A stretch of DNA of 61,479 nucleotides, the filler included, from Catajapyx aquilonaris (lineage: Eukaryota), in NCBI GenBank assembly GCA_000934665.2. It is 3 parts of 3 records of this genome, joined end to end, with 100 filler letters (N's around TTAATTAATTAA, not from the genome) between each part and the next. Parts side by side here need not be neighbours in the genome. Positions count along the whole stretch, not along the records: positions 40,967 to 61,479 come from KZ539507.1; 2 more parts are not named here. One strand, 5' to 3'. The translations under genes and the position numbers were made by a program. Of the stretch, positions 20,484 to 60,499 are shown one piece after another. Below the pieces are notes generated by a model. The model saw only the letters and a list, made by a program, of their open reading frames with translations, was not told the DNA's origin and made no database searches. Within the stretch, counting starts at the first letter, position 1. Every line of letters starts with the position of its first letter.

Positions 20484-20839
20484 GAGCGCGTCCAACACCC
20501 GCATGTGACGTCACGGCGGGAGAGCGGTGATGCGCATTCGGACGCGCCAGTTGAGCCCAGGTAGGGTTAAGGAATACGCGAAATAGCTCAGTGCATTGAC
20601 GCCTGATATGGAGGTCGCCATATTGGAGCTCCTGCATCACGTGACACTAATACTGGCCTCTGATTGGCTGATCGGGGAGCTCAAACCAGTGACGTCACCC
20701 GTGCAACTTCAGAACGCACCCTCCCATATTTTTTTTTTGTCGAACGCGCCCAGTGCAGGTGGTGACCGGCATGACGTTGACGTGACGTGAAAAGAAAAAT
20801 AAGGAAAAGGGACCCCCCCTCTCCACGTCAGTGACGTTG

Positions 20840-23639: not shown

Positions 23640-24045
23640 ACAATTTATTTACACAAATTTGCATAACCTATTTATACCAATTTTGGCACAATTTATTTAC
23701 ACAAATTTGCGTAACCTATTTATACCAATTTTGGCACAATTTATTTACACGAATTTGCATAACCTATTTATACCAATTTTGGCACAATTTATTTACACAA
23801 ATATGCATAACCTATTTATACCAATTCTGGCACAATTTATTTACACAAATTTGCGTAACCTATTTATACCAATTTTGGCACAATTTATTTACACAAATTT
23901 GCGTAACCTATTTATACCAATTTTGGCACAATTTATTTACACAAATATGCATAACCTATTTATACCAATTCTGGCACAATTTATTTACACGAATTTGCGT
24001 AACCTATTTATACCAATTTTGGCACAATTTATTTACACAAATTTT
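23640..24045. repeat. 48-bp minisatellite x~8
   Basis: caatttatttacacaaatttgcataacctatttataccaattttggca in tandem. Confidence 0.95.
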
Positions 24046-24155
24046 GCACACTTGTTCCTGACAAATGACTGCACAATTATTCAACCGTTTTTTGAGCAAT
24101 AATTTATGCAGACAAATTTCGCATGCCTTATTATTTCTAATAATATATGATAATA

Positions 24156-24211
<56 letters not shown>

Positions 24212-24239
24212 TATTAATATATAATATTTTAAACACAGT

Positions 24240-24437
24240 CAGGGAGCATAATTATACTACCATGGCCGCCAAAACCATATCAAAAATGGCGGACCCTATT
24301 TTTGCCTGTACCCTATTTATACCTCGTTGGCGTTCCCCACACTTCAAGATGGCCGCCAGCCTTGGCAACGGCCCCAAACAGAGAGACGCGAACATCAAAG
24401 GCCCCGACAGAAGTTTGCGCCTCTTATATGCTCCCTG
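24240..24437. mobile_element. MITE family 1 (TIR CAGGGAGCATA, 7-bp TSD ACACAGT)
   Basis: CAGGGAGCATA...TATGCTCCCTG flanked by ACACAGT on both sides; internal sequence matches copies at 53481 and 55799-56378. Confidence 0.85.
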
Positions 24438-28250: not shown

Positions 28251-31200
28251 ATGGCTACGACTGTGGACAACGCTTTCAAGGTGATCCCGAGGAACTCCAC
28301 CTGCTTCTACATATGGAGGATAGAGGTACGGAGTCGTACTGTAACAGAAAATTGATGAATTAATCGCACTGTAACGGAAAATGCATGAATTAATCGCACT
28401 GTAACGGAAAATGCAAGAATTAATCGCACTGTAGCGGAAAATGCATTGATTTAGTCGTTCTGTAACAGAAAATGCATTAATGAGCCGTTCGCCACTTACA
28501 GAAAATGCAGGTGATGACGGTGCCGCGAGATCAGTACGGCAAGTTCTTCACTGGCGACTCGTACATTATCTTTAGTGTCACCGAGTCTGGAAGCCCGGGC
28601 GGTGTCGCATGCAAGGTAAGTGCGATTGCTATTTCGCTGTATGGCGTAATTTGGTAATACTTGCTTTATCTGCAGACACGTGAGGCCAAGTCGGGCGAAC
28701 AGCTTGAGATGCATGTCCACTTCTGGCTGGGGAAGGAAACAAGTGCGGATGAAGCTGGAGTCGCGGCGTACAAGACTGTTGAGCTGGACGATTGGCTCGG
28801 AGGTGCTCCGGTTCAGCATAGAGAAGTCGAGGGAAGGGAGTCGGGTCGGTTCCTGGCGTACTTCACGGATGGGATTCGGATCCTGCAGGGTGGCGTGGCG
28901 TCCGGGTTCAGGCATGTGGACAACGTGGTGGAGCCCCGGTTGTACCAGGTCAAAGGTCGGCGCAGGCCGGTGGTGCGGCAGATGCCAACGGTGTCGTGGG
29001 ATCACATCAACGACGGGGATGCGTACGTGCTGCAGGTGCCGGAAGCCGTGTTTGTGTGGACCGGACGGAACGCCAACCACATGGAAAAGCTGCAGGTAAA
29101 TATTAACAACAAAAAATTTGTGTGACACTCACTAATCGCTGCGTATTACAGTCGGCCAAGACTGCGCAGAAGTTACGCGGCGAGGCTCCGAAGCCTATCA
29201 GCATCGTGTTCGTCGAGGACGGCAAAGAGCGTGACCTTCCGGATGCTGAGCGGACCGTGTTCAACCGTCATCTGGAGCTCAAAAAGCGGGTGGTTAAACC
29301 GGCTGCCGAAGCTCCGTCCGACGAGGAGCAAGAGAAGCGAGTCAGTTGCGACATCCGCCTGTACCGCTGTTCAGACGAGGACGGGACGTTGCGTGTGACT
29401 GAAGTCAAGACCGGTCCGCTCTCCCAGAACGACCTGATATCGGACGACTCGTTCATCGTTGACGTTGGCGAGCAAGGAATCTGGGTGTGGATCGGACGCA
29501 GAGCCAGCGGGAAAGAGAGGGTCGAAGCGATGCGTAACGCGCAGGGCTTCCTGAAGAAGAAGGGATACGCACATCACACGCACATTGCGCGTGTTGTCGA
29601 CGGAGGCGAGCCGCTTGAGTTCAAGTCGTTGTTCCGCAACTGGAAGGACAGGTTCGAGAGCGGTGCTGGAGGAACCGGCGGGCCACGGTACACGCAAGGA
29701 CGCATCGCACGCACAATCCAGACCAAGTTCGACGCATCGACATTGCACGACACGCCTCAACTGGCAGCGCAAACACAGCTGGTCGACGACGGGTCCGGAA
29801 AAGGCATCGTGTTCCTTGTCCGCGACCATGACGCCAGTCCGCTTCTGCCTAGACGCCACGGCGTTTTCTACGACGGAAACTCGTACATTGTCAGGTACGT
29901 GGCCACTGTTTCGAACAGTAACAATTTCATGAATGTCGACTCGCAGGTATACGTACGAAGCAAACGGGCGTGAGCACATCTTGCTGTACTACTGGCTGGG
30001 AGCAAAGTCGTCAGCTGAAGATCAAGGTACCGCAGCGTTGAAGACAGTGGAGTTGGACGACGAGGTGGACGGACGGGCGGTGCAGGTCAGAGTAGTGCAA
30101 GGGAAGGAGCCGGCTCACTTCATGGCCATTTTCCAAGGGAAGATGATCATATTCCGTGGCGAGGCGCCTAGAGAAGGTGAGCACATTGCCAATTGGTACA
30201 ATCGCAAGTACGAACCATTCGCAATTGCAGATGGCGTCGAGCATGACATGCCGGATCTTCCGATACTGATGCAAGTTCGAGGCCGGTCTGTCCAGGACAC
30301 CGTGTCGATGCAGGTTGAGCTGAGGGCGGCCTCGCTCAACTCCAACGACGTCTTCGTGCTGATGGGAAGCCAGAGCGGAACGTACGTGTGGTGCGGACAG
30401 GGGTCGACCGGGGACGAGCGGGAGATGGCGAAGCAGGTGGCGGGGAAGGCCGGAAAAGGCGAGATGCACACGGTGTTCGAAGGGCAGGAAAAGGACGACT
30501 TCTGGGACGCAATTGGCGGGAAGGAGCCGTACGCCAACGACAAACGTCTGGCGGAATCCAATGAGGCCAGGCCGGCCAGGCTCTTCCAGTGCTCCAATGC
30601 GTCCGGATGCTTCAAAGGTCAGCGTTTCGTCCGATTAATGCGCGTTTAATGCTCACAACCATTTAATTGCAGTTGAGGAGATCACGCATTTCAACCAGAG
30701 CGACCTGGTCGAAGAGGACATGATGCTGCTTGACGCCTGGGACTGCCTGTTCCTCTGGATCGGAAACATGTCCAACAAGGACGAGCAGAAGCTGTCGCAG
30801 GTTGCGGCCAGGGAGTACCTGCAGACGGATCCCGCGGGAAGGGAAGGCGGCGTACCCATCTTCCTGGTGAAGCAAGGGAGCGAGCCGCCCAATTTCACCG
30901 GGTTCTTCGGCGTCTGGGACAGATCCCTGTGGAACGTAAGTCGTTTAGTTACAAGCGCCAACGTTTCGTAATTATTAATTGCGCCAACAGAACAACAAGA
31001 CGTTTGACGAGCTTCGGGAGGAGCTAATGGCCGACAGCCCCCAGATAATGCTCCAGAAGGAAACCGAGGATGAGAATTCCGCAGGAGACGCCTTCGAGGA
31101 CTACCCCAAGTTCCCTCTGGACGTCCTGCGCCTGAAGGATCCGGACGCACTCCCCGATGGAGTCGATCCGACCTTGAAGGAGGTGCATCTGAGCACCGAG

Positions 31201-33900: not shown

Positions 33901-39260
<5,360 letters not shown>

Positions 39261-40866: not shown

Positions 40867-40966
40867 NNNNNNNNNNNNNNNNNNNNNNNNNNNNNNNNNN
40901 NNNNNNNNNNTTAATTAATTAANNNNNNNNNNNNNNNNNNNNNNNNNNNNNNNNNNNNNNNNNNNN
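40867..40966. other. Artificial scaffold spacer (N44-TTAATTAATTAA-N44)
   Basis: Same 100-nt structure as 20384-20483. Confidence 0.97.
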
Positions 40967-41211
40967 GACATTTCTTAGTCATGGTTATTTCACCCGGACA
41001 TTTCTTAGTCATGGTTATTTAACCTGGACATTTCTTAGTCATGGTTATTTAACCCGGACATTTCTTAGTCATGGTTATTTAACCCGGACATTTCTTAGTC
41101 ATGGTTATTTAACCCGGACCCATGACTAAGAAATGTCCGGGTTAAATAACCATGACAAAAGTGATCTTTTTTCCGGGATAAATACATTTAACCCGGACAT
41201 TTCTTAGAGTG
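40967..41211. mobile_element. MITE family 2 (TIR CACTCTAAGAAATGTCCGGGTTAAA) with 30-bp internal tandem repeat, left-truncated
   Basis: ccggacatttcttagtcatggttatttaac x~5; ends TTCTTAGAGTG followed by TA. Confidence 0.8.
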
Positions 41212-41301
41212 TAGGCAACACTTTTATGCAACAAGTGAACTAATTGTTTTCTACAGATTGACATTATTCTATTATGCAAATTATTTCATGTTCTTACTCA
41301 G

Positions 41302-42445
41302 TCAGACCTCAGCAGAACAGGGCAGCAGCCAGACAGACAGGCGCCAAATGCACTCTACCAGGATCCGTCATCATTTTGGCTGCTTCAGTGAGTCACAACT
41401 CCAACATGAGTAATATCACACACCTAATGCGCATATGTCACAGAATAGTCCTCAATTCGGCCAATGCTTCGGAAGCAGCAGGCTTGGAGATGCGATCAAA
41501 CGTTGCTCTGACCAAGGTGTCGCCAAACAAAGGATGAATAACAACAATGCAGGTGAGTTGATATAAACTTATATGGAGATCTTAGTTTATTAGCATCAAA
41601 CTTGCAGGTCCAGGAAGGCAGCAAAATAGGATCAGACGACCTCAGCAGAAGATAAGACGACAGAAGAGAGGCGTGGAAGACATGCTGAAAAGAGTTGGCG
41701 ATATGGTCAAAGGATTAATTCCTGAAGAACTGAAGTCGTTGATCAACCCAATCCTTAAAGGAACCATCGGAAACCTGCTGCCTGAGGACTTCAAGAGCTT
41801 CGTGTCCGTGGACATGATCATCGAGCTATTCACCAACATGAAGCTCTGGCAGTTTCTGATAGGCGAAGTTTTTGGAGGAGAAGATGACGAAGAAGATCTG
41901 AGGGAAAATGTGCCCAAAGGATTCCAGAACAAAATGTTGGTAAGTGATGTTGTCTCCTGCACATAATTTTTGTGCGAAATTTTGTTCTTTTTATTTCTAG
42001 TGCTTGGACCAGTGCGTGTATGCAAATGCTGGACTGGTAGGTGTCGCCATTCCCTTGATTTTTATCATATATGTTTGTGTTGTGTTGACGCCCACGTGCG
42101 TGACTTTTTCTACACACAGTTGGGCGAGAACCGGAAGCCCGACCACCAAAAAGTGCTGTCCCTGCTTCGAGGTCAAGCGTCTGAAGGCCACGAGTGGACC
42201 CCTGACCTGGAGGACACTTATTGGAGGTGCATGAAGGAGCAAGCCAATGAGAAAAGAAACGAGGCTTGCTTCAAGCAAGGATGTATAGCTAGCTTTCTAT
42301 CAGCTCAATGCATGCTAGACGTTTTGGCCCAGGTAAGACCCCCACAAAAAATGGCCAAACAAAATTTTTTCTCAAGTAAACAGGAGAGCAATAAAAAGTA
42401 ATTAACATTTTTTTGTTGCAGTTGTGCGGTGCTACCGAAAGGTAA
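41302..42445 (+). CDS. Long OBP-like secreted protein A (5' partial). Exons: 41302-41387, 41444-41552, 41608-41939, 42001-42036, 42120-42332, 42422-42445
   Basis: CTLPGSVIILAA, GQCF, KRC, RRQKR|GV, CLDQCVYANAGL, WRC, EAC, QGC-x8-C-x8-C. Paralogue of genes B-E; signal-peptide exons are not seen in this scaffold. Gene model well supported; the OBP label is inferred from Cys spacing. Confidence 0.8.
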
Positions 42446-42775
42446 CTCATAGAAGACGGATTCAGGCAGGGCAGTGTTGTTACGAAATAAATCAGATTCG
42501 CGAGATTAATGCATCAAAATAGTTGGCGTATTTTTACTCTTTCAGGTTCACATCTCATCACAAAAAAACTGACACTGGTTTGGACTCTTCTGACCTCCGT
42601 ATTAATGCAGAACATGCCAACATTTTTCTATGGTGTGATTATGGGGCGGGGGAGTATTATTGTGAATATGTCCTTCAAAAAATGACTACTCGAGAGAACA
42701 AAAAAAAAGATTCATAATCGCCACCTGCCATCTTTGGACTGAAACGATCTATCTCAGTGTCATCGACAAAAATTT

Positions 42776-42782
42776 TATATAA
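42776..42782 (+). promoter_or_regulatory. TATA-like box upstream of gene B
   Basis: TATATAA 47 nt before the ATG; similar motifs precede genes C and D. Confidence 0.4.
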
Positions 42783-42822
42783 GGAGTACAACTTGTTTAT
42801 TTCCCTCACATAAACTCTCACA

Positions 42823-45284
42823 ATGAAAGCGTGTGGATTGCTCGTAGTTTTGCTGGCATCCAGCATGGTAAGGACTCACTGATCAGTATAGGCATACATA
42901 TTTTTACTGACATTCCTAGCAAATCAATTAATTTTTTTGTTGCATTTACCACTCATGTTTCTTCAAAGGAAGGTTTTCATTGAAGGGTCAGAAATTGACC
43001 ACTTTTCATATATTGGTAAGAAAGTGCTCAAATGTTCAAGACACAAACTATCATCATTGTAGACCGGAATAATTTACAAACATTTGATATCTACAATTGT
43101 ACAATATTACCTAACTTTTCGGAAGTGTAAATAAGCAATTCTTGGAGATTATATTTAACAAATTTCAACCAATTTAATGATTGTCTGGTCCTTGACACAA
43201 AGCAAAATAATTGTTTCCTACTCCGAAATTTTGATGCTAGGCAAGTGCACAAGGAGCTCACAGAAGACAACCGACAAAAAGGGGTAAGTCAACATATTGT
43301 TTAAGTTAGTCAGATTCACTAAAATTTAGTACTCATTAATGCAAAAAAAATTCAGTAACGTTTCCTGAGTTCATAATAATTAGGGTGAGTACATTTCAGC
43401 AGGGCAGGTTCAACAAAAGGCAGCAGGACAAGTCGAAGCTAAATGCAGGTTACCCGGATCAGTCATAATTCTGGCAGCAGCTGTGAGTATCATATTACTT
43501 AAAAATCTCATTTCATTGTTTTTTAAAATAATTAATTCCTCCACTTAGAATCACTCTCAGTTTGGAAAATGCTTTTCGGACAATCGCCTCGGAGATGCCA
43601 TAAAGAAGTGCTCCGAACAAGACCTGGCTAAACAACGAATGAAAAACCGCAACAATGGTGTGTGTAACTTAATGGGCCGTATTCCGAGTCAACAACAAGA
43701 AGTTAGTGCAGTGCTTTAAACCACGGGACCCAGTTCACTAAGAAAAGTCGCATTCAGAGTCGCGCTTTAGGCCTAGTTCGGGCCTAGTGAGGACTTAGTG
43801 CGATCCTGCTAAAGCGGTGCACTAAGGCAAAACTTAGTGAAGGGGACCCCCTTCTTTTGCGTCGAACTAACATCGTACTAGGCAGTGGCGGTAGTTTGAA
43901 AATAAGTTGGCAGCTTTTTAAACTGCTGCTAAGCGATTTTTGGCGCTCAATCTTCATTTGTTTCCCCAGCCTGGGGAAACAAACGAAGATCGTCGCCCTG
44001 GGGATTAAATCAAGATTAGATGAAGCACGAATGAAGATCGTCGCCCGCCGACCCCCAGCTCCGATTTTTTTTGCGTAAATTCGTCATTACTAATTATTTA
44101 ATCATCTAAAATGTGTTTTCAGGTCTACAAAATGTATTAAAATCGAAATAGAGATGCATTAATATTTAAAAGCCCATTTACAGCCTAGACGGTGTCCGAA
44201 AACCTGACTGTGAAATCGTGGCCACACCGCGTCTCGCTAGTGCAGTGTTCGAACCTAGTGCGCTCCTCTAAGCAGGCAGTGAGGCGACTCTGAATGGGAG
44301 CAACTAGTGTGGTGCTAATGCGGACCTAGCGTCGCACTAGTTAGTGTGGACTTATGCGCTGCATTAGCGAACGACTCTGAATACGGCCCAATGTTAATTA
44401 TGCTAATATTAGTGTGATGAAGTGTTCATACTTCAACAAGGAACAAGGTGGAAAATATAGTTATGGATATTGGTGATTAATGTAGATTTTAATAAGCAGG
44501 TCAGCAGAATGGACCACATAAGAAGAGAAGGCGACAGAAGAGGAGCATCGAGATGCTGAAGAGGATAGGAGAGATGATTCAAGGGATAATTCCTAGGCAG
44601 CTGAAGGACATAGTAGATCCGATCCTGAGGGGGACCATAGGAAGCCTCCTTCCAGAGGAGCTCAGAAACATGCTGGGAGTGGACATGATCATATCTCTCT
44701 TCACCAACGCGAATCTTTGGGAGGTTTTGGTCGGAGAAGTGTTCGGAGAAGAAGATTCAGCAGCCCTGCTGGCTGAGAGTCTGCCAAGAGGATTCAAGAA
44801 CAAACTGATGGTGAGTTCACTCACCTTCGGACCTTATTGCGCGATTAATTACAATTCACAATTGTTTGTTTCTAGTGCTTGGATCAGTGCGTCTACAACA
44901 ATGCTGGATTGGTGAGTCCTACCATTTCTTGTTGATGACAAAAAAAAAGTTTTGATATTGTCTGAACTATACACAGTTGGGTGAGAACCAGAAGCCGGAC
45001 CACCAAAAAGTGCTGTACCTGCTTCGAGGTCATGCGACTGAAGGTCACGAGTGGACACCTGACCTGGAGGACACTTATTGGAGGTGCATGAAGGAGCAGG
45101 CAAAGGAGACGAGGAACGATGCCTGCTTCAAGCAAGGGTGTCAGGCCAGTGTCCTCTCGGCCCAGTGCATGCTTGACGTCCTGGCAAGGGTCAGTTCAGG
45201 TCACTTTAAGGGTCATCTTTGATAAACAGTGTTAATAATAGGCATCTCATCACATTTCAGCTGTGCGGCGCTATCAAGAAATGA
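42823..45284 (+). CDS. Long OBP-like secreted protein B, ~287 aa. Exons: 42823-42867, 43241-43283, 43400-43482, 43549-43657, 44500-44810, 44876-44911, 44977-45189, 45261-45284
   Basis: Signal-like MKACGLLVVLLASSMASA; 10 conserved Cys; RRRQKR|SI; 36-nt CLDQC exon; TATA-like motif at 42776. Confidence 0.82.
43674..44389. mobile_element. Non-autonomous DNA transposon (~716 bp) in intron 4 of gene B; PIF/Harbinger-group-like ends
   Basis: 17-bp TIR GGGCCGTATTC(C/A)GAGTC with one mismatch; AAT on both sides. The equivalent intron is only 55-59 nt in genes A and C. Confidence 0.85.
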
Positions 45285-45827
45285 CTTACATAAATGTACA
45301 AATATTTAACGACAATAAAATAATCAATGAGTCTGTAAATGACCAATAAATCAATCAATAAATAACTGAGGTACGTGGATTCATGCAAAGAACGACCTGG
45401 ATAAGTGATTGATTGAAAGAGTTACTTACAAATATTTGATTGATTAAAATAGTTTCTGATTGAAATTAGGTGTTTAGTGATATTTGTGTGTATAAAATTT
45501 AGAATGTTTCAAATTCCGGTTTAAATTGATGGGACATCGATTGCTGTTACGTCAACAACTTGTAGCCTATAGAAAACACGACCGGAATGATGGTCGGATG
45601 ACGGAACTTTTGTGCCCTTAATAAAGTCATGTTGCCTTTTCAGGACAACAAAGAATTATCAGCGTGGAAGTCAGCAGCTTTTTTTGTGTGATTTGAGAAG
45701 TAGGGTGTAATTTTGTCATCTCTTCTCATTTCGGCACGCGGATATTGTGTAGTCGCACCCTTGTTCGCAATCGTCGCTTGCAATCTCTGCCTGAATTATT
45801 ACATACGTTACAATGTCATCGGCGTAA

Positions 45828-45834
45828 TATAAAA
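45828..45834 (+). promoter_or_regulatory. TATA box upstream of gene C
   Basis: TATAAAA 56 nt before the ATG. Confidence 0.45.
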
Positions 45835-45883
45835 ATGTATATACGACATGTGTATTTTCTCACTTCCACTTTCAACGGACACA

Positions 45884-47568
45884 ATGAAGGTGCCCAGATC
45901 ATTCTGGATAATTTCGCTACTCCTTGTGTCCATCTTGGTAAGGCCAATCAGAATTACTGCAGTAAATCAGTGAGACTTTAAATATAGTTATGTTCCTTCT
46001 CACCAATTTTAAAGTAAGTTGCAAGAAATGTTTTTTTGCTGTTGACAAATTATCATATTTAAAAACAGATGTTATTTCAAGCTGTCACAGGTCATGTCAC
46101 CAAATAGTAAATATTTTTTTGCAGGAGGACATAATGGGAGCTCAGAGAAGGCAACCTAAAAATAGGGGTAAGTACATTGAAAAATTCAGATTTGTGTCTT
46201 ACAGTTATAGTGCAATATAAACTGTACCTACTTCTGATATATTGACGAAGAAGAGATGCCAAATATACCCAGATCCATCGATTGCGATTAGATACAATGA
46301 CTTTTATGGACATGTGGTCATTTCGATAAATTATGAATTACAAGCAAGTAGATTAACAATATATATTAATAAGCATTCAAGTTATTACAATCAAAACAAA
46401 CTGACTTAGTAACAGCAGTGCAAATATCTCTTTGATATTGGCTTTTTTTTTGCATAGGAAGGGTTCAGCCGAAAATAGCGAGACAAACTGGTGGTACATG
46501 CACTTTACCAGGATCCGTCATAATAATGGCAGCTTCGGTAAGTCTTCTGCTTCGTTTGAGAGACAAATCCACCGTCATTTATAATAATGATTAATACATA
46601 AATTAAAATGGCACAGAATAGTCCCCAGTTCGGCCAATGCTTCGCAGACACCAGGCTCGGAGAAGCGATCAAACGTTGCTCCGACCAAGGTCTCGCCAAA
46701 CAACGAATGAACAACAACAATGCAGGTAAGTTGAGGGTTAAAAAAGATTGGTACAACTGGAGCACAAACATGCAAACTATATAGGTCCAGGAAGGCAGCA
46801 AAATAGAATCAGAAGACCTCAGCAGAAGAGAAGGAGACAGAAGAGAGGCGTTGGAGACATGCTGAAGAGAGTTGGCGACATGATAAAGGGCTTCATACCT
46901 GAAGAGGTCAAAGCTCTCCTAAACCCAATCATCAAAGGAACCCTCGGAAACATTTTGCCTCCAAGGTTAGGCAGCATGGTCTCAGTGGACATGATCATAG
47001 ACTTCCTTACTGACATGAACGTATGGGACTATCTGATAAGCGAAGTGTTTGGAAGCGAAGACGGAGAAGAGCTGAGGGAAAACGTGGCAAAAGGATTTCG
47101 AAACAAAATGTTGGTGAGTCACAGAAAGTTCATCATTTCCACCTGACAAGTATTAGTGATTCTTATTTCTAATAGTGCTTGGATCAGTGCGTCTACGCCA
47201 ATGCCGGATTGGTAAGTGCTTCAAAATATTGTTCATTTAAAAAAATTGTTTTGACACTGTACGAACTATACACAGTTGGGGGAGAACCGGAAGCCGGACC
47301 ACCAAAAAGTGCTGTCCCTTCTTCGAGGTCATGCGACTGAAGGTCACGAGTGGACATCTGACCTGGAGGACACTTATTGGAGGTGCATGAAGGAGCAGGC
47401 AAAGGAGACGAGGAACGATGCCTGCTTCAAGCAAGGGTGTCAGGCCAGTGTCCTCTCGGCCCAGTGCATGCTTGACGTCTTGGCAAGGGTCAGTTCAGGT
47501 CACTGTTGGGAAAATAGAGCTAACAATAGGCGTCTTAATTGCAGCTTTGTGGCGCCATCGAGCCATGA
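45884..47568 (+). CDS. Long OBP-like secreted protein C, ~295 aa. Exons: 45884-45937, 46125-46167, 46458-46537, 46617-46725, 46785-47113, 47176-47211, 47276-47488, 47545-47568
   Basis: Signal-like MKVPRSFWIISLLLVSIL; same exon phases as B; RRRQKR|GV; 10 Cys. Confidence 0.83.
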
Positions 47569-48362
47569 CTACACATTCAAAATCGGGAATACTTTCAAAT
47601 CACAATTATTAATATACTCATTAAATCAGATGATGATTGTGAAGTCGCGGACACAAAATAATTTAGTCAAATTATGCAAAAAAAACACATGTTCTGCTAA
47701 TAAAATACTTCCCATGACATTTACTGCTGTACGAACAAAAACAGAGGAAAGAACCTTGACAACAATGCCGCGCATTAAAATTGTGACAAACGTAATAAAA
47801 TGCGTTTGTATTCCATGAACAGCCAGTGGTATTTATGGAGCCGCATTCCTTCTCAGAATATGCTGCACTCTGCATTATAAGGAAAGTCATGATGGCAATT
47901 TTTTTTTGCGATAAAAACGGGGCATGCAAAATTGCGGAAACGCTTCCTGAGCAGGGACACAATGTGTGTTACATAATCCGCCCCATGCTTTTTTTTTTTG
48001 GTTATACGTTCGTGACGTCTGAGATATGGACAGGTGAGACATTCTTTAGTCAAGGAATTTGGCGGAAATGTGGGCAACCTCCAAAGGTCAAACCAATTTC
48101 AATCCAATTGCTGTCACATTACCTAACCGCAAAAGGCAGAAAAAACAACAGCAGTAAATACTACTGCACCTCAGGTCTGTTCAATGAAATTTTGGCCATA
48201 CATAAATATGCAAACCATGACCCTGAAGTAGTCACAGCATCCCGTCTCCATATATGTTTGGTCCACACGCGGCTATAAACAAAGCGATCCACTTTAGCAC
48301 ACGCCACTGGCATCTTTTTCGCGAATCCGCAGCGACTCACTTATCTCCAAATGACATCTTGG

Positions 48363-48369
48363 TATAAAA
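48363..48369 (+). promoter_or_regulatory. TATA box upstream of gene D
   Basis: TATAAAA 91 nt before the ATG. Confidence 0.45.
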
Positions 48370-48453
48370 ATGAGGCTCTACGTAGTTGGGGAGCTCAAAA
48401 GACAATTCCTTCCACTCACTGAAACTCTGCTACGAATCAAGAAGCTGTCTGCG

Positions 48454-50507
48454 ATGGACCAGAAAAAGTGCACATCCATCTACTCGCAAATATTTTTTGT
48501 CCTATGCTTGTTGGTGAGTATAATAAATTTTAGTGGTTAAAATGAGAGTGTGATTAATAAATTAATAGTCACGAGTATAACTGGCCTATTTCAGCCGCCA
48601 CAAAAAAAAAATGTGTAGACAAATTTACACTTCTTATTTATTCAGAGCTGAAGGAGAATTGAATGTAAAACGATCAGTCACATTCTTGATTCATTTTATT
48701 ATACGAGGGTGTGTATAGTAATGAACTTTGTATTATCCATTATGAAATGAACATTTTCCTTTCGCAAAATTAGGAGGCGATACACAATAATTTTTCTACT
48801 AGAAAATGACTAGAGAGCTGTACAATTGCGAACAATATGTGATTGATCGTTCTGCACACTTATTATTAGATGACCGATTAATAATTTATATTTTCTAAAC
48901 ACTCTGTATAGGGATGCGCCGCAGCAGCTAGCAGACAACCCGCATGGTCATTGGGTAAGGATAATTTACAACCCTATACATGAACTCTGCTAATTTGACA
49001 GTTAATTACAAGGCAATAAAATCATAATTATTAATTGAAATTATGAAAACAAATAAGTTAAAATGGATTGCTTGCTACTTTTCTAGGACGAGGTCGACTC
49101 GGTGCAAGAGGACGCCATGTTGAAGCCTGTGCCTTTCCTGGATCAGTTATTATAGTGGCCGCAGGGGTGAGTTGTTTATTAGTGTCTATTATAATGCCAC
49201 AAAATTACTTGAAATATAAAGGCAAAACTGTTCATGTAGTATCACACTCCTCTAACAGATGGCGCATCCTCCCTCTCTGCACACTAGCGCCATTCTCAGG
49301 TGGTGCGAGCGATAGTCGTACTATCAACTCGGACAAACAACTGTTAAGAGCGACAGAGCCGATTTTTAAATGATATACTGATAATGTCTTGTGCAGAAAG
49401 ACCCCAAGATCGGCGCGTGCTTCGACGACAACCGCCTGGGAAATGCCATCAAAGTGTGCGCTCACCCTGAAGAGGACCGGGACCAGACCAGGACCAGGCG
49501 TGGCATAGCGGACAGCTTGGAGCGAATGGGCGGGATGATGGCCCAGTTCATACCAGCGGAGTTCAAGGAGCTGGCAGACAAGATCCTTCAAGGGACAGTG
49601 GCCCAGCTAATGCCCGCTGACATGAGGGCCACTCTGACAGTGGACATGATGGTCGAGTTCATGACCAACATGGAGCTCTGGAAGGCCACAATCGACCAGT
49701 TCGTCGGAGACGCCCCAGCAGCAGCCGAAATGAACCATATACACCAAGCCCTCAACCTCTCGGTGAGTCACCGAAGTTATTTCCTCAGCAATGAGCTAAA
49801 CTATTGTACTCTACATTTCAGTGCCTGGATCAGTGTGTCTTCGAAAAGGCTGGATTGGTAAGCATTCTTTATAGTTAACACTTACCAGGTAGTACCACAT
49901 TCATCACATGGATGTCGCATACCACTACTGCCACTTAATAGGGTCATGCGTGAGAAAGTGGTACTATCAGCTCGGACAAACAATAAATTGGAAAGAGCAG
50001 TACAGCTCCGGTTATATGATATTTATCTACAATTTTGGGACAGTTGGGTGATGACCAAAAGCCAGACGACCAGAAGGTCCTGGCTCTTCTCCTGGAGCAC
50101 GCGGAGGCCAATCCGAGACTGAGCCGAGATTGGGTCAACGCCCTGGAGAAGAACTACAGGAGTTGCCTGGAGCTGCAGGCTAGAGAAGTTAGACCACCCA
50201 AGTGCGTCAAGGCAGAGTGTCTTGACAGCAGTTTGGCAGCCCAATGCATGCTGGATGCCCTTGCTAGGGTCAGTCTCACAGGTCATGTTTAGGTCAACAG
50301 TCACTGTCTATTCAAGTCAATTTTAGGCACAGTTTATGTGAAAGAAACAGTCATACATATTGTACTGTATACATTTAAAAAATAGATGACTATAGCCTTT
50401 TATATCAAAGAATAGCGGACAGTTGACCAATTTGTAAATTATTTTTGGCAGTCCTTCAACCTCTCATTGTTTCCTTGTCTTTCTAGCTCTGCAGCGCGAT
50501 CCGCTAA
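48454..50507 (+). CDS. Long OBP-like secreted protein D, ~276 aa. Exons: 48454-48513, 48912-48954, 49087-49166, 49397-49762, 49822-49857, 50044-50268, 50487-50507
   Basis: Signal-like ...IFFVLCLLGCAAA; CAFPGSVIIVAA, GACF, KVC, RTRR|GI, CLDQCVFEKAGL, RSC, PKC, AEC-x8-C-x8-C. Confidence 0.8.
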
Positions 50508-50926
50508 TAGCAACAGCAGTTGTCGGTACCGCAAATAAACCAAGCAGTGTACTTTATTGTTGTCCGGTAAATGGATAAATAAAGAGGCTGGGAATACCCC
50601 CCAGCGAGCACTCACAATAATAATTCCTGCCCAGTAATTATCCCAAAAATATATGTGCCAGGGACAGAGGATGGACCTGAAAAATGTCTCGGACAATGCC
50701 CAGTGATTAGACCCCCCCGCTTTAACGGTTTATTTTAGAAATTATGATATTGGGCAAGGGGGTTTTGTCCGCTTCCTCTGGCGTGTTAGACCCTAACAAT
50801 GCACGCTTGATCGGAACAAGGGCCGGGTGGGGACAACACTCCCATGTCATTGTTGTCCAAGGTCTGGGGCCCGATAGCAGGTCTTTTATAGGGCCAGGAT
50901 TTCCCAAAGTGGGGACATTCGGGACC

Positions 50927-53900
50927 ATGGACGTCTTGGGGACTCTGCTGGCGACTCTCCTGTTGGCCACGGGGTTCGGCCCCGGGGCAAAAGGTCGGAA
51001 TCTGATGACCCCTGACCACCACATGATGGTCAAGCGGGGGTCATCCGGACTGGCACCACTCTGCATCTTGCCTGGAACTACAGCCGTTTTCCTCTTTCTG
51101 GTCAGTCTGTTCGAGAGTCTGTTATACGTATACAGTTAAGTTGACTGCAGAGAAGTAGTACACTTTGGTCATGTTTTCAGGCGCATGAGCAGTACGGATC
51201 TTGCTTCCGGGATAGTGACATTACGAGAGTTGTTGAGCTTTGCATCGGAGGAGCTGATGAGTATCCGGAAGAAGACGATGGCGGCGGAGGTGGAGGAGGC
51301 GAAGGAGCCCCAGCAGAAATGAAGGCCATGTCCCAGAACAAAAGTATGCGCATGCGCAGGCCGATCGCTGCTACTTATAACACCGACTATTCCTAAACGT
51401 GATTTTTTTTAAATAATATTTTGTAGCGTTGAAGCGTACCCGGAGGACCATTCCAGGGTTGATGGAACTGTTGAGCCAGCTTGGGATGGGCGCAAATTTC
51501 CTGACGCTGGTGCAGCCTTTGCTTTCCATTGTAATGCAGTTTGTCGGTATGTTCGTCGGGGGTTCTGGAGGAGACGGTGGAGCACCGGCTGATGCTCCAC
51601 AGGTAAGATATCAGCAGCAGGATTTACAATGGGGGGACATTATTCAATTCGGTGCATTTTGCAGGCTTTTGTGAGCCTTCGAAGGGCATTGGGGCGTGTC
51701 CAGATCATATCGAGACTGACGGATATCCCTGAGGAGGAGCTTCTCTACAGGATCCAGGATTACATGATCGATCATCACGTGACAGATCCAGCAGCGTACG
51801 AGCACCTGAACCAACTAGTCGAGAGCGTCCACCAGAGGAGCAAGAGGGCATCTGAGACAATCAACAATCCTTTCTTCCAGCAGCAACAGCAGGACAACAC
51901 CACTCCAGTTCCTCCTCCAGCCACTCTTCCTCCTCCACTATCCCTGGACATTTATCCGATCCTGGAACCTTTCTTACTCGCTTTTCTCAGGGTAGCTAAA
52001 CCATTCCTGCCCCTGTTCGTTCCTGGGATCGAACCAGACAACCCGTTCATAGCAGGCCTGAAGGATCTGGTGGAAGGTCGGAATCTCACCACCCAAGAAG
52101 TTCTGGCCGGATTCCTCCACTTCTTGCAATCACTCAATTACACTGGTGAGTCCTAACTTAAGCTCATATCAGTTTGTACCTGCTAACACTGCTTTCACTG
52201 TTTGGGTGTATAGAAACGGACATGGCTGAAGGACTGAGGTCATTCCTGATCAAAGTGGAGACCAGTCCTCGAGAGGTGCTTGAGCAGGTGGAGACTTGGA
52301 TCAGAGGAGCAGAGAGCAACGCCACTGATGCCTTGGATGGACTGAGAGACGTTGTGGAAGAACTGAACGGAACGGCCATCGGAGTGCTGGCCAGTCTGCA
52401 GTACATGACAGAACACGGACAGGTAAAGGTCACTGTCCTGACCCTCTCACGCGATTGTCGCCCTTGACTAACGCCTTAGTGACCTCAATATTGCACCTTT
52501 TATTCACACAGCTTCCGACCTTGCACACGTTGAATCCGGACCACTCCCAGGACAGGGATCGTCGTGCACTCAGAGTACCTTCATTCCTGGCGTACCTGCA
52601 GCCCAGGGGCATACGAATACCTGCAGTCATTCAGCCGGCCATCAACGCAATACTAGACGTGATCAAACCCTTCGTACCAGAAGAGAACAGGAACATGCTA
52701 ACGGCTGAACTTTTCCAGGTAATATCCCATCTAATATTATTCTGATTTTTACGAGGTACACACGTCACCAGAGTATAGTCAGCTGTAGATTTCTTACGAG
52801 CGCAACCGACTGCGCACCACCATTCGCGCAGCTCCTCTGCTGTGGAAGCGTTGGAAATAAGTGCAGAGCTTATCGACCAATACGCCCACTATACAGCGCT
52901 TACCAACTATCAGTGATAATTCCAACCCTGCAAGCTGCGCGAACTGTGGTGCGCACTCGGTTGTGCTAGTTTAAAAAAAATCATATATAGTACCCATAAC
53001 AGCCGTCTCATTTGACTGATTGTTTGCAGGAAGCATTGTCGGACCCTCAAAACCTGCAACTGACTTTGAGCACACTTATGCCCGAGTTCCTGAGGCCATT
53101 CATCGACGCACTTCCGGTGGAATACATCTTCAGGAGGATACCTGTAAGTTCAACAAACAGACGGGAACAAACCGAAACGGGCCGATTTGCTTCGGTTACC
53201 TTTTCATATACCAATGTTTTCCATTACAGTGCGTGGACCGATGCGTCTTCAGACGAATGGACTTTGTAAGTCACTCTGCGAAAATACTAACAATGCTCCG
53301 TTCACATGTCTATTGACCTTTTGACCTCATGTTGACCTATAGGATGACGAAGAGGGCGAGGCACCAGATGTGAACAAGGTGTTGGCGTACCTGAGGCGCG
53401 TGGCAGGAAGACAATGGCAGCCTACAGCTGAAGCAGAGTTCAGAAAATGCGTCTTCAGAGGTGCGCACACTTGACCTGGCCAGGGAGCATATACTACATA
53501 AGATGCGCAAACTTCGGTCAGCGCCATTGATTTCCGCGTCTCTCTGTTTGGGGCCGTTGCCAAGGCTGGCGGCCATTTTGAAGTGGGGGCAACGCCAACG
53601 AGGTGTAAATAGGGTACAGGCAAAAATAGGGTCCGCCATCTTTGATGGTTTTGGCGGACATGGGAACTACACGGCAAGAACACGCGCGAATCAAAGATGG
53701 CGGACCCTATTATTGCCTGTACCCTATTTATACCTCGTTGGCGTTGCCCCCACTTCAAAATGGTCGCCAGCCTTGGCAAAGCCCCAAACAGAGAGACGTG
53801 GAAATCGAATGCTTGCGCCTCTTATGTAGTATAATTATGCTCCCTGACCTGGCCATGTCAAATGACTGAAATGACCTTGACCTTTTTAATAATCTTCCAG

Positions 53901-54144
53901 CCCGCGACAACCTCTGCAAATTCGACGACTGCCAGCTGTACACCCAAGTCGGGGACTGCATGTCCATGGCTCTTATGGGGGTAACTACAAATCAAACCTA
54001 TAACCGCACTAAAAAAGAAAAGGTGTTGACCCTCGTATATTGTTTCAGCTGTGCTACCCCCAGTTCCAACCCGGAGGCTGGGATTACACCCGGACCCAGC
54101 AGGTGATCCAATCCTTGCCTGCTCGCAGGAGAAAGACCCACTGA
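50927..54144 (+). CDS. Very long OBP-like secreted protein E, ~617 aa. Exons: 50927-51100, 51181-51343, 51427-51602, 51665-52145, 52214-52422, 52512-52718, 53030-53143, 53230-53265, 53343-53460, 53901-53980, 54049-54144
   Basis: Signal-like MDVLGTLLATLLLATG; CILPG, GSCF, ELC, then a ~400-aa Cys-free insert, then CVDRCVFRRMDF (36-nt exon), RKC, NLC, DDC-x8-C-x8-C. All junctions are GT-AG and in phase. Confidence 0.78.
52796..52970. mobile_element. Small inverted-repeat element in an intron of gene E
   Basis: ~38-bp imperfect inverted arms (52796-52833 and 52933-52970); a related arm begins at 55584. Confidence 0.65.
53481..53846. mobile_element. MITE family 1, foldback form with two inverted arms, in an intron of gene E; TSD ACCTGGC
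   Basis: Same TIRs; ACCTGGC at 53474-53480 and 53847-53853; left half is the reverse complement of the right half. Confidence 0.88.
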
Positions 54145-55774: not shown

Positions 55775-58700
55775 NNNNNNNNNNNNNNNNNNNNNNNNAT
55801 TCCCGCGTCTCTCTGTTTTGGTGCTTTGCCAAGGCTGGCGGCCATTTTGAAACGGGGGCAACGCCAACGAGGTATAAATAGGGTACAGGCAGGCCGTAAA
55901 GGTCCGCCATCTTTGATGGATTTGGTCGCCATGTCACTACACTGCCGTATGAGCTCCTTGCACTTTTCTACGTATTAATTCCGTAAGTACGGGAAAAATA
56001 TTTAAATTCGCGTGTGTTCTTGCCGTGTAGTGCCGTGGCTACCAAAAACCATCAAAGATGGCGGACCTTTACGGCCTGCCTGTACCCTATTTATACCCCG
56101 CGTTGGCGTTGCCCCCGTTTCAAAATGGCCGCCAGCCTTGGCAACGGCCCCAAACAGAGAGACGCAGACATCAAAGGCGCCGACCGAAGTTTGCGCCTCT
56201 TATATGTAGTATATGCTCTCTCTGTTTGGAGCGTTTCCAAGGCTGCAAAACGGGGGCAACGACCGCGACCCCGTTGGCGTTGCCCCCGTTTCAAAATGGC
56301 CGCCAGCCTTGGCAACGCTCCAAACAGAGAGACGCGGGAATCGAATGTTTGCGCCTCTTATGTAGTATATGCTCCCTGACCTGGCTATCACTTTATTGCC
56401 AAACCATTTCTGAGAGGAAGAAAAAGTTGAGAGAACACTCACCATCCCTTGGCATATGCCCATTCCTTCGGGAAGACCTTCCAAAACGGGTTCCTCTTCC
56501 GAGCCTTTGTCGCTTTCCTGCGAACAAATCCGGGTCTCAAAATGGCGTTCAAAATATTAGTTCTGAACCACAGTTTATATACCTTCTTGACGAGATTCTT
56601 CGCCAAGCTTCCGGTCAGCTTCCTCAGCTTTTTGAAGGCTGCAGGTATCCGGGACGCCAGCTGGTCGTGCAGCTGTCTGATCTGCTCTTGGCTTAGCCCG
56701 GACAACCGGTTGAATATGGCGTCTACCAGGGTGCCACAGTCGCAGGTCGGAGGGCAGCCGCAGTTGATGGCGGCCTGTCTGGCCCTCTCGCAACCTTCCA
56801 CTGTTGGCGGAGGGGGCGGCTTCTTCAGGTAGGATCGAGGCAGCTTCCTCTTCATGTACGGGTGGCCTTTGAAAGGCTCCTTACTTACTTCCGCGACCAA
56901 CTCGGCCCCTGCGTCCGGCTCCGCCTCGAAGTACTCCACGACATCTGACACCGAACCACCACTGATTGACAGCAGGTCAGAGATGACGGCTGGCAACGAC
57001 GCAGATGGCGGACGAGACAAAGGAACCATTTGCGAGCCAGATGAAGGCAGTGAGGCCGATGGTGCTCGAGGCATAGGAGCCATATTCAGATCCGAACCAG
57101 TTGGGGATAGAGCCCTATATAGACATCAAGGAAGATTGAGAAGAAGAAAAAAAAAATCATGCGAGCGTGATTCGAGTAGACTTTTTCTCATTGGGTAGCG
57201 GGGAATGAGGCTGTTTTTGCCCTACACTCTAAGAAATGTCCGGGTTAAATGTATTTATCCCGGAAAAAAGATCACTTTTGTCATGGTTATTTAACCCGGA
57301 CATTTCTTAGTCATGGTTATTTAACCCGGACACTTGTTAGAGTGTATACACTCTAAGAAATGTCCGGGTTAAACAACCATGACCAAGAAATGTCCGGGTT
57401 AAATAACCATGACAAAGAAATGTCCGGGTTAAATAACCATGACGAAAGTGATCTTTTTCCGGGATAAATACATTTAACCCGGACATTTCTTAGAGTGTAT
57501 CCATGGTTTTTTTTCTGATGAGAAAAAAGTCTGAATATCACACGTGCGATCTATCAGACGGATCAAAACCTATACTTTTGTGACTCGTCATCCTGTTCCG
57601 CATCAGCTGATGCTGGATCCGAAGTCTCATCTGGAGACGGCTGTTCGAACTGTTTCTCATCCTGGGAAAAGGACGCGACCTCAGGTTCAACCGGTTCAAC
57701 TGATGCCAGTGAAGAGGTTTCCACGTTGGGAGATCCGACGATTGATCCTGTCTCGGAGGCTGCGCTCTCAGGTTCGGGCTTGATGGCCGTCAGCGAGCCT
57801 TCATCTGCTGGATTGGGATCTGTACAGGAGTTAACAAGATGAGATTTATTCCTGTAATGCACATTTGGCCAGAATATCACTAGGCAACACGGCAAAGCAA
57901 AATCTACTCAATGTGCAATAATTGTCTCTTGTTACAAATATGAGAGCATTGGCCCATATAAATGTGATTGTAGACACCTCCAGCTAGGTATGTTATTATA
58001 GACTAACATGTAGAATTCTGACCAAAAATATTTGGATTATTTTCATGACATGCGAAACATATACGATATGATTGTACAGAGTAAATAGAGTGGTGTTATT
58101 ACCTAATGCTGGTTCCGACATGACTTGGAAATTTTGACGTGTCACGAAGCAGGGAATAATTTTTTTCCGGGAGTTTTTAAAAAATACAACCGGTTCGTAC
58201 AAGAATTTTGAGCAACCTGGTTTGTCTCATTCCTTGGAAACGGAGCAACAATAATTTCTAACATTACACAACAGATAATTTTTTTTAACAATTCTAGCAA
58301 ATTGATATGTTTATTAATTATATTTTCAGTGCATGTTGCAGTGCATTCTGGATGAAGGAGATGCGGTGAGTGTCATATGTAATTATTCACATTTTAATGC
58401 ATTATTGATGTAAGCACTTTTTTTTTTCCAGCTGGACACAGATGGGTGGCCAGTGTCCCAAAAAGTTGTGGACATGTTTCTTCCATTAGTCGAGTACTCA
58501 GTAATTAGGAACGTCACCAAGAAAGCGTACGACTCTTGCATTGCTCGAGGTCAGCATTTCACGCCTTACACAACGACATAATATTTTATTACTAATTAAT
58601 TATTATTCATATTTTAATTTGTGCAGCAAAAATGGCTGATTTGGATGATGTCACTGTGTGCGATCAGCTAGAACATATCTACAACTGTGCAACTGATATT

Positions 58701-59054
58701 GTTGAAGAGGTATTACACATATTACATTCAAGAGTGGGCAGAATTCTGAATAATTGTTCACCCCAGCAATCAACTCAAATAACTATTTTTTTACTGTAAC
58801 AATTCGCTCATTGCTTTATTGCTGGTTGCTGAGCAAGTTGCTGAGGTATTACTTGCTGTGTCATACAACTCAATATTTGCAGTAATTTTTTATAAAAAAA
58901 ATATACACGTAACAGTTGGAAAGTGAATACTTAATAATAAACAGCTTAGTGCCAAAAATAGCTAATAGTTGCAGATACTGATATTGGAACATAAATGGAT
59001 ATCTAACAAATATTATTAATTATTTTGCAGGAGTGCATCAAGGTTCGGAATTAG
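54904..59054 (+). CDS. Short OBP-like protein F, ~142 aa. Exons: 54904-54981, 55056-55145, 58330-58365, 58432-58549, 58627-58709, 59031-59054
   Basis: Signal-like MAQVASLLLLSAIACLVAA; CPVP, MHC, CMLQCILDEGDALDTDGWP, DSC, TVC-x8-C-x8-C. Exon sizes 36/118/83 match gene G. Joining across the 3.2-kb intron 2 is inferred from paralogue structure. Confidence 0.75.
55799..56378. mobile_element. MITE family 1, rearranged composite copy (left end lost in the N gap)
   Basis: Repeated cgttggcgttgccccc...aatggccgccagccttggcaacg arms in both orientations; ends with TATGCTCCCTG. Confidence 0.8.
56439..58121 (-). CDS. Nested antisense gene of unknown function, ~312 aa. Exons: 58121-58103, 57819-57576, 57114-56439
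   Basis: ATG exon MSEPAL+G (phase 1) fits the acceptor at 57820; the phase-2 donor fits the acceptor at 57115. Acidic Ser/Pro-rich N-terminus, Cys cluster CERARQAAINCGCPPTCDC, basic C-terminus. Confidence 0.65.
57225..57497. mobile_element. Two adjacent MITE family 2 copies (57225-57344 and 57349-57497), each flanked by TA
   Basis: TA-CACTCTAAG...TTAGAGTG-TA-TA-CACTCTAAG...CTTAGAGTG-TA. Confidence 0.85.
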
Positions 59055-59218: not shown

Positions 59219-60499
59219 ATGGATGCGTCCACAGCAAAGACTCTCTTGCACCTGGGAATCCTCTGCAACTTGGCGGTGTACGGACAGGTAAAAGAGTCTT
59301 GCTGTCTTCACATATCGCAAAAAGTCACTTCGCCAAAAAAATTATATTTTTTGCAGAAGCAACTTTGCCTTGTTCCCAACTCACCTACGCCAGAGTTCGA
59401 GGAGGTGCTGACTTTTTGCGAAAATGGAGTTAAGGATGGCACGATAGACGTAAGATTATAACCACCCCACCCTATGTCACGTACTGTCACAATAGTTTAA
59501 ACTGCTTTTGACTGTATATTGTTAATTGTTCAATAATTACAGTGTGACATCGAGTGCGTCATGGAACAGACAGGTGTGGTAAGTTATGATGTTTCTTGGA
59601 TCGCCTGCCTGACAGCCAAAAACTTTTACCGCCAACACACATTTTCCTTTACCGCCAATTCCCCTGACAACCAATTCCCTTTACAGCAGAAAAACCCCTG
59701 ACAGCCAAAAATCTTTTACCGCCAATTCCCTGACAGCTTCTCCTGATGGTATAAATATTTTTTAAATATTAAATAAAAATTAGAAAAATACAGTAATATG
59801 TAATTAACGGAAATAAATAAATAATCAAATGATTAAATGTATAAATAGGAGCTAGACAGCTTCCTTTTGTTTTGATTCGTCTTATCACCGTTGGGGGCAG
59901 CTAATATGTTGTAAGGGTTGGAAATAACGCAATATTATTCCAGATTGATGAGGATGGATGGCCTGATGGTAAATTAGTGGCGGACGTGCTGACGCCTGGT
60001 GATAAATACATCACGTTTAAAAACGTCGTAACTACAAGCCTTGATGACTGCACGCAACAAGGTACTTATAATATTATTATTTGACATTCTCCAGGTATGT
60101 GTCTAATTAATATTTATGTACCGGCAGGTAAGGATCACAAAGAGTTTGAGGGTGGAAACTGCGAGAGGCTATCATGGATCGACGAGTGTTTCTCGGATCT
60201 AGTCACACAAGTACGTGTACCGGCACTTCACTAAGGTCATGTCACATGACTGTTGAAATAAAATAAAATGAATTATTAATTAATTAAAATATTTTGATAA
60301 TTTGGTTTATAAAGATACATTCCGAAGTTGCTTGTCCATGACGATTACACAGCAAGAAAATAGCAAAAAAAATCGTTGCTGACAAGTCGAATCGAGTCAT
60401 AAAATCTTTTTAAAGTCATTAGACATAAAAAAGTGATATAACTTAATTTTATCTATTTTTTTCCAGAATTGCGAGTTCCAGGTAGACGACAGCGAATGA
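59219..60499 (+). CDS. Short OBP-like protein G, ~143 aa. Exons: 59219-59287, 59357-59449, 59543-59578, 59944-60061, 60128-60210, 60467-60499
   Basis: Signal-like MDASTAKTLLHLGILCNLAVYG; CLVP, TFC, CDIECVMEQTGVIDEDGWPD (OBP-type C2-x3-C3...G-x2-D-x-DG), DDC, GNC-x8-C-x8-C. Confidence 0.83.

Follow-up and report, generated by a model that had tools for sequence, protein, structure and literature searches.

Five tandem genes of Catajapyx aquilonaris encode odorant-binding-protein-like proteins with a helical insert behind a furin-type motif: a candidate processed, two-chain class

Five head-to-tail paralogous genes, here called A to E, occupy positions 41302-54144 on the + strand of a 61,479-nucleotide (nt) stretch of DNA from Catajapyx aquilonaris (assembly GCA_000934665.2), the window of this analysis. 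All five are multi-exon and intact in exon models built from their coordinates, and in each a cysteine scaffold of the odorant-binding protein (OBP) kind is interrupted by a Cys-free insert whose putatively helical module begins directly after R-x-K/R-R, the consensus for furin-type proprotein convertases. A to E are a real and probably lineage-specific variant of OBP-like proteins. Judged from sequence, convertase maturation is plausible, with the arguments on its two sides about evenly poised; the full chain of steps, in which a secreted OBP-like protein would be cut by a convertase and persist as a disulfide-tethered two-chain protein, we rate as possible and somewhat short of an even chance.

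Results

A convertase-type motif at the start of a Cys-free insert

Exon ends were set by reading the sequence, and the joined exons were translated by script. A preliminary description of the locus had given the interval ahead of the C-x3-C pair as about 10 amino acids (aa) in the short paralogues, ~100-125 aa in A to D and ~430 aa in E, free of cysteine. The measured values agree: 10 aa separate the last N-terminal Cys from C2 in the short paralogue F, while the interval is 126, 119, 125 and 101 aa in A, B, C and D and 429 aa in E, and the insert of A to E contains no Cys. The 45-residue module peptide quoted in that description was likewise present in the gene A translation. Alignment divides the insert of A to D into a linker of 14-36 aa and a conserved module of ~90 aa; the linker is N/Q/R/P-rich and strongly basic in A to C, and in D and E it is acidic and unalignable to that of A to C.

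In five of five genes, as had been described, the linker ends in R-x-K/R-R and the module follows directly, the motif being RQKR in A, B and C and RTRR in D and E. The residue after the motif is small (G, S, G, G and T in A to E), and the new N-termini predicted earlier (GVED, SIEM, GVGD and GIAD) were recovered. One part of that account had to be changed; E contains three such sites, and the positional counterpart of the A-D site is the third, RDRR, and not the first, RTRR. The A-D module profile has a weak match (3.2 bits) at residues 437-483 of E, and the distance from the site to the first "IP" unit is 17 aa for RDRR in E and 16 aa in A. The first two E sites, RTRR and RSKR, head two Cys-free stretches without counterpart in A to D; together with the match of the third site, this means that all three E modules start at a motif.

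The motif also persists in D despite strong divergence, as previously claimed, the junction site being kept where synonymous divergence (dS) is above 1 and saturated and the linker can no longer be aligned. In D and E the motif stands at the same aligned position with no other likeness to the A-C linker left. We reasoned that, where four residues persist in a linker otherwise free to vary, the simplest reading is a cut after the motif, provided that A to E traverse the secretory pathway. R-x-K/R-R at a conserved junction, as in a furin substrate, was found in all five, and exposure of the site is suggested by the low-complexity linker, in which AlphaFold2 (AF2) confidence is low.

An obligatory insert under purifying selection

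The insert exon of A, B and C measures 332, 311 and 329 nt, respectively, not a multiple of three, with phase 1 at its start and phase 0 at its end; a transcript that lacked it would be out of frame, and the exon is thus obligatory. In D the insert is fused with the preceding exon, and in E it is spread over exons 2-7. By the Nei-Gojobori method, the ratio of nonsynonymous to synonymous substitution rates (dN/dS) was 0.18-0.57 for the insert module (6/6 pairs), 0.06-0.28 for the core (6/6 pairs) and 0.14-0.23 for the N-terminal part (three computable pairs); dS is mostly above 1 and the ratios are hence rough, and all lie well below 1. The insert is under purifying selection.

The module of A to D carries a net charge of -4 to -7 and contains two alike units of the form hydrophobic-hydrophobic-P-E-E/D-hydrophobic-K. 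The 18-residue hydrophobic moment at its first helix reaches 0.58-0.73, and AF2, applied to the contiguous D exon as a single-exon fragment, returned a helical module, with a predicted local distance difference test (pLDDT) score of 65-81 in the middle and 61.6 overall. This moderate amphipathicity would be consistent with a lipid- or membrane-binding role. A HMMER profile of four insert sequences was searched against 1,835,955,588 protein representatives at E <= 0.001 and matched one protein, P0001 (E 7.8e-05, 7 stretches), from an unnamed single-member ENA cluster. In this metagenome protein of 425 aa, about ten units of 16 aa, G-x-I-x-G-L-L-P-x-Q-L-K/R-x-I-V-S, are arranged in tandem, and their pattern is similar to that of the two "LLP-x-x-L-K" units in the insert module. 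P0001 is a low-complexity lead and not an orthologue; the likeness could be chance among amphipathic repeats, or a hint at the origin of the module.

A separate observation concerns genes B and C, whose cores (44876-45284 and 47176-47568) are 93% identical with dS 0.135, whereas the dS of their insert modules is ~2.1; the contrast looks like recent gene conversion confined to the 3' half of the genes.

Cysteine pattern and relation to OBPs

Each of A to E has 10 mature cysteines, three before and seven after the Cys-free insert, spaced C-19-C-12-C-(126/119/125/101/429)-C-3-C-(43/43/43/47/42)-C-(12/12/12/12/8)-C-4-C-8-C-8-C in the order A/B/C/D/E. The set first noted was incomplete; a tenth conserved Cys lies in a hydrophobic segment ahead of the first Cys then listed, and the residue then labelled C1 is an additional Cys, 10 aa ahead of C2, whereas the Cys preceding this one corresponds to the classic C1.

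The hydrophobic segment is itself a common feature of A to E and is lacking in F. It consists of C-x-L/F-P-G-S/T followed by seven or eight hydrophobic residues, is placed between the signal-like exon and the first OBP-type Cys, and in A to D is much better conserved than expected of a signal peptide.

Two short paralogues, F and G, situated past the 3' end of the array, have neither the insert nor R-x-K/R-R; the last exon of F was not found, and G is a partial model in which the 5' and last exons are not resolved. OBP assignment relies mainly on the Cys-spacing pattern, and OBPs are reported only in Hexapoda, according to the part of the source drawn on here (PMC4145409). The classic motif, as given in an excerpt of another source, is C1-X25-30-C2-X3-C3-X36-42-C4-X8-14-C5-X8-C6 (PMC5623005). 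F is spaced C-16-C-10-C-3-C-42-C-14-C-8-C, and a single additional Cys precedes C2 by 10 aa; taking its first Cys as C1 (16+1+10 = 27), it reads 27/3/42/14/8, and every term falls within the classic motif. G, at 3/42/14/8, agrees with the motif over the three intervals covered.

A to E depart from the classic signature when it is taken as a whole. C2-X3-C3 and C5-X8-C6 are present in 5/5, C3-C4 is 42 (E), 43 (A to C) or 47 (D), C4-C5 is 13 (E) or 17 (A to D), and the classic C1-C2 interval, at 114-442 residues, lies outside the classic range because of the insert. An exon pattern is common to long and short forms: a 36-nt exon encodes C-x3-C plus seven residues, and the next two exons measure 118 and 83 nt in F and G and 118 and 80 nt in E, these two being fused in A to D (213-225 nt). 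In both A and F, the exon with two N-terminal cysteines, the second coding exon, has a Cys at exon position 21. Core identity between long and short forms is 17-24%, and low identity of such degree is described as usual among OBP paralogues in the consulted part of PMC4145409. Because F fits the OBP motif and A to E have the F exon pattern, A to E appear to be derived OBP-like genes; on Cys signature and paralogy, they are derived members of an OBP-like family of the 8-Cys type.

Proposed maturation

The fold of classic OBPs has six helices and three disulfides that interlock, C1-C3, C2-C5 and C4-C6. In A, C and D three cysteines lie before the convertase-type site and seven after it, and B has one more Cys, in the signal exon. 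With every Cys paired, one disulfide or more would have to bridge the two pieces, and the tethering logic of the earlier account holds. Up to three inter-piece links might form, by analogy with C1-C3 and with the addition of the A-E-specific cysteines, one on each side.

We propose that the tandem genes A to E represent a subfamily of secreted OBP-like proteins that is specific to the lineage and would have been derived from the adjoining 8-Cys short type (F and G) by two gains. One would be the N-terminal hydrophobic segment with its extra Cys, along with one extra core Cys; the other would be the exon-encoded helical insert, which is obligatory, free of Cys and placed after the N-terminal cysteines and ahead of the C2-x3-C3 helix. 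At each module start, the R-x-K/R-R would serve furin-type convertases of the secretory pathway as a cleavage site. The cut would leave a small N-terminal chain (three Cys) disulfide-bonded to a large chain (seven Cys), and in the latter the amphipathic helical module would come first, joined to the OBP-like core. If E were cut at all three sites, two helical pieces without Cys, ~110 and ~190 aa long, would be released in addition. Secretion, OBP fold, cleavage, tethering and a ligand or lipid role of the module are steps that we infer, as distinct from the gene structures, paralogy, insert, motif and sequence constraint, which were observed. More tentatively, these proteins may be a new class of two-chain, OBP-fold carriers matured in the manner of prohormones, in which E would be a polyprotein releasing two free glycosylated helical proteins and the module would provide the binding pocket with a lid armed by cleavage or with an arm that docks to lipid or membrane.

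Evidence weighed for and against processing of an OBP-like protein

Several observations count against the proposed two-chain, OBP-like protein. The A-C site sits in a very basic stretch in which the motif is easily obtained, and when each protein was shuffled 2000 times, the chance of reaching the observed motif count was P = 0.17 for B and 0.13 for D (A, 0.015; C, 0.039; E, 0.002); we consider positional conservation in D and E the more telling argument. The AF2 model of D, which is of low confidence, is one long helix through RTRR (pLDDT 53-65 there), and such a helix, if true, would hinder cleavage. In A to D the module ends, on its C-terminal side, without a basic site and would thus not be released there. 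A signal peptide is modelled in only three of the five long genes, the models of A and D being incomplete at the 5' end.

Some of these points would be expected if the OBP-like core is as described and the protein stays single-chain, with the insert acting as a helical lid, an extension or an oligomerisation segment and the motif either buried or kept otherwise, for example for contact with an anionic surface or partner. The A-C linker is strongly basic throughout and not just at the motif, the low-confidence D model buries the site in its long helix, and A to D lack a second site past the module. D and E, however, keep the four-residue motif within acidic linkers, which argues against a general basic patch, and E repeats the motif at all three module starts; we regard an uncut protein as a doubtful, though serious, alternative to the two-chain form.

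The search results also speak against an OBP-like protein. The OBP domain is split across 4-5 exons, and the Pfam, PDB and fold queries were single exons. Pfam searches with 14 single-exon translations, at E up to 1 and 10, never listed PF01395 and gave no match reaching the curated cut-off; a PDB profile search with the core exon produced 0 matches at E <= 10; and ESM Atlas returned a best score of 0.81 for the core exon, a weak lead to CHCH-type clusters, and no usable match for the insert. The core-exon fragment was modelled by AF2 at low confidence (pLDDT 55.5), and Foldseek against the PDB with this fragment listed four rows, at E 7-10, none of them an OBP. Complex prediction of the N-terminal Cys exon with the C-x3-C exon or the core exon, as separate chains, scored 0.04, a neutral outcome. 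Word-seeded protein searches found no relative of the A insert exon or the A core exon (among longer proteins) or of E exon 4 (among proteins of near lengths). No orthologue was found in the protein collections searched, and the conservation of the site is that among paralogues of one genome. Proteins of the window itself were not returned either, so the collections probably lack the lineage, and the missing orthologue is weak evidence.

The same results bear on whether the Cys scaffold is an OBP fold at all. A to E might instead be lineage-specific, disulfide-rich secreted precursors, similar to those of prohormones or antimicrobial peptides, in which the processed helical pieces would be the active products and the Cys-rich ends a carrier or pro-region. 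The lack of Pfam, PDB or ESM support for an OBP would suit such precursors, as would the multiple convertase-type sites of E, which would free Cys-free helical pieces, and the sole database match of the insert profile, a repeat protein with a similar 16-aa unit. On the other hand, the short paralogues follow the classic OBP spacings wherever these are covered, the stretch after C3 shows a G-hydrophobic-hydrophobic pattern and an acidic loop, which we take to be typical of OBPs, and the module remains fused to the core in A to D. We consider a non-OBP precursor unlikely.

Gene models and signs of expression

The limits first given for the array are exact; 41302 is at the acceptor of the first recognisable exon of A, and 54144 is the last base of the E stop codon. 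The gene starts were placed too far downstream, the true starts lying further upstream, where B and C have a signal-like exon and a conserved 43-nt exon (Table 1). The first exons of B and C have the same ATG context and encode a hydrophobic, signal-like peptide; the 43-nt exon is 86% identical over 37 nt and, besides the Cys-bearing exon, is the only aligning block between the B and C upstream regions. A scan for a counterpart of this 43-nt exon in gene D gave nothing. The first exons of E and F were likewise read as hydrophobic and signal-like, in E at the opening of the exon. The 5' exons of gene A were not found; the DNA directly upstream contains a repeat element and, at 40867-40966, an N gap, and a possible in-frame ATG was read at 41274. 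Gene E encodes six N-x-S/T sequons, five of which are inside the insert, and this distribution fits a luminal protein.

That A to E are not expressed, being decaying duplicates or chance open frames, would accord with the missing 5' exons of A and D and with the lack of a homologue in the protein collections searched. We judge this very improbable, as it is opposed by the gene structures: 33/33 introns are GT-AG, all five frames are open with no internal stop in any exon of genes with up to 11 exons, dN/dS is well below 1 in every computable region and pair, and AATAAA or ATTAAA occurs 27-52 nt past the stop in four of the five genes.

Table 1. Positions of genes, exons, convertase-type motifs and other features in the window
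Feature	Position	Strand	Details
Gene A	41302..42445	+	265 aa modelled; 5/5 introns GT-AG; 10 Cys; open frame
Gene A exons	41302-41387, 41444-41552, 41608-41939, 42001-42036, 42120-42332, 42422-42445	+	41608-41939, insert; 42001-42036, C-x3-C
Gene A motif RQKR	41658..41669	+	next residues GVED
Gene A second motif RIRR	41628-41639	+	ten residues before RQKR
Gene B	42823..45284	+	287 aa
Gene B exons	42823-42867, 43241-43283, 43400-43482, 43549-43657, 44500-44810, 44876-44911, 44977-45189, 45261-45284	+	42823-42867, signal-like; 43241-43283, 43-nt exon; 44500-44810, insert
Gene B motif RQKR	44532-44543	+	
Gene C	45884..47568	+	295 aa
Gene C exons	45884-45937, 46125-46167, 46458-46537, 46617-46725, 46785-47113, 47176-47211, 47276-47488, 47545-47568	+	45884-45937, signal-like; 46125-46167, 43-nt exon; 46785-47113, insert
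Gene C motif RQKR	46835-46846	+	
Gene C motif RIRR	46805-46816	+	ten residues earlier than RQKR
Gene D	49087..50507	+	241 aa modelled
Gene D exons	49087-49166, 49397-49762, 49822-49857, 50044-50268, 50487-50507	+	49397-49762, N-terminal Cys pair and insert fused
Gene D candidate signal exon	48454-48513 or 48454-48517	+	junction not settled
Gene D motif RTRR	49490-49501	+	
Gene E	50927..54144	+	617 aa, 11 exons; 10/10 introns GT-AG; 10 Cys
Gene E exons	50927-51100, 51181-51343, 51427-51602, 51665-52145, 52214-52422, 52512-52718, 53030-53143, 53230-53265, 53343-53460, 53901-53980, 54049-54144	+	50927-51100 opens with signal-like stretch; 53230-53265, C-x3-C
Gene E first site RTRR	51435..51446	+	start of first extra module
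Gene E second site RSKR	51836..51847	+	inside exon 4, start of second extra module
Gene E third site RDRR	52554..52565	+	17 aa before "IP" helix aligning to A-D module
Hydrophobic segment	41302-41387 (A), 43400-43482 (B), 46458-46537 (C), 49087-49166 (D), 51040-51100 (E)		
Short paralogue G (partial)	58330..58709	+	exons 58330-58365, 58432-58549, 58627-58709; no insert, no basic motif
Short paralogue F	59219..60210	+	exons 59219-59287 (signal-like), 59357-59449, 59543-59578 (C-x3-C), 59944-60061, 60128-60210
Repeat element flanking A-E	40967-41290, 57221-57499		
Palindromic interspersed repeat	53461-53900 (E intron 9); copies 24238-24437, 55799-55945, 56006-56388		
Long open frame	20786-22258	+	GDP-mannose 4,6-dehydratase-like candidate, by eye
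Long open frame	28650-30971	+	gelsolin/villin-type candidate, by eye
Long open frame	34039-38146	-	Rho-kinase-like coiled-coil kinase candidate, by eye
Tandem-repeat tracts	500-904, 6369-7056, 23551-24102, 4300-5400		seen as repetitive open frames

Other features of the window

The A-E array is flanked by a repeat element built of ~30-nt tandem and inverted units, the two copies of which are inverted and 88% identical over 227 nt. A palindromic interspersed repeat, with copies 79-90% identical, occurs in an E intron and in intergenic DNA. Three long open frames received candidate identities by eye, and long tandem-repeat tracts were also seen. Near 4864, a possible C-x3-C exon of the minus strand sits in a tandem repeat and was ruled out.

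Discussion

We know of no described OBP subfamily with a large C1-C2 insert or a processing site, and a literature search turned up neither two-chain OBPs nor any that carry a convertase site or a large insert in the C1-C2 interval. The classic insect OBPs (PBP_GOBP, PF01395) are small, secreted and helical, and A to E keep their C2-X3-C3 and C5-X8-C6, with a C3-C4 interval of 42-47; the long genes differ in having 114-442 residues from C1 to C2, where the classic proteins have 25-30, as well as four extra cysteines, a hydrophobic N-terminal segment and a convertase-type site. Plus-C, dimer and atypical OBPs also have extra cysteines and extensions, and A to E are like Plus-C in that a C4a precedes C5 and another Cys follows C6. 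The Plus-C motif, in the form stated in the excerpt used, is C1-X20-41-C2-X3-C3-X41-46-C4-X19-29-C4a-X9-C5-X8-C6-P-X9-10-C6a (PMC5623005). A to E do not conform to it; C4-C4a is 8-12, C4a-C5 is 4 and C6-C6a is 8, and the residue after C6 is M where Plus-C has P. Chelicerate OBP-like proteins, including the Varroa OBP1 fold, are described in the relevant part of their source as OBP-related secreted proteins outside the classic insect set (PMC8222343). The spacing of F is of the classic insect type.

In insulin-like precursors, cysteines that flank convertase sites yield a disulfide-linked two-chain product, the arrangement that we propose for A to E. The middle piece of insulin is excised at both ends, whereas A to D have one site and the module would stay on the C-terminal chain; the Cys pattern and fold of insulin are unrelated to those of A to E. 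A second parallel is the arthropod lipid carrier apoLp-II/I, which, as stated in the part of the source consulted, is cut by furin at RX(R/K)R before secretion (PMC1783640). Insect apolipophorin II/I, like crustacean apolipocrustacein, resembles the proposed product in being a furin-cut secreted carrier made from a single precursor and having amphipathic lipid-binding parts; it differs in being an unrelated, very large protein of the LLTP superfamily, with no OBP-like core and no paralogy to A to E. We take its cleavage by furin as a working analogy for how a carrier protein could be matured by a convertase.

OBPs are usually viewed as small, single-chain, passively secreted carriers, the subfamilies of which differ mainly in Cys number. 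The genes of A to E are overlooked entirely by automatic annotation and by Pfam. If the two-chain proposal is correct, they would encode a binding core interrupted by an obligatory helical module of 100-430 aa and gated by a conserved convertase site, and the OBP repertoire would be extended by post-translational activation and by a second part that binds lipids or partners. They would also show how exon gain can remodel the OBP fold, and would offer a concrete case for non-olfactory OBP roles.

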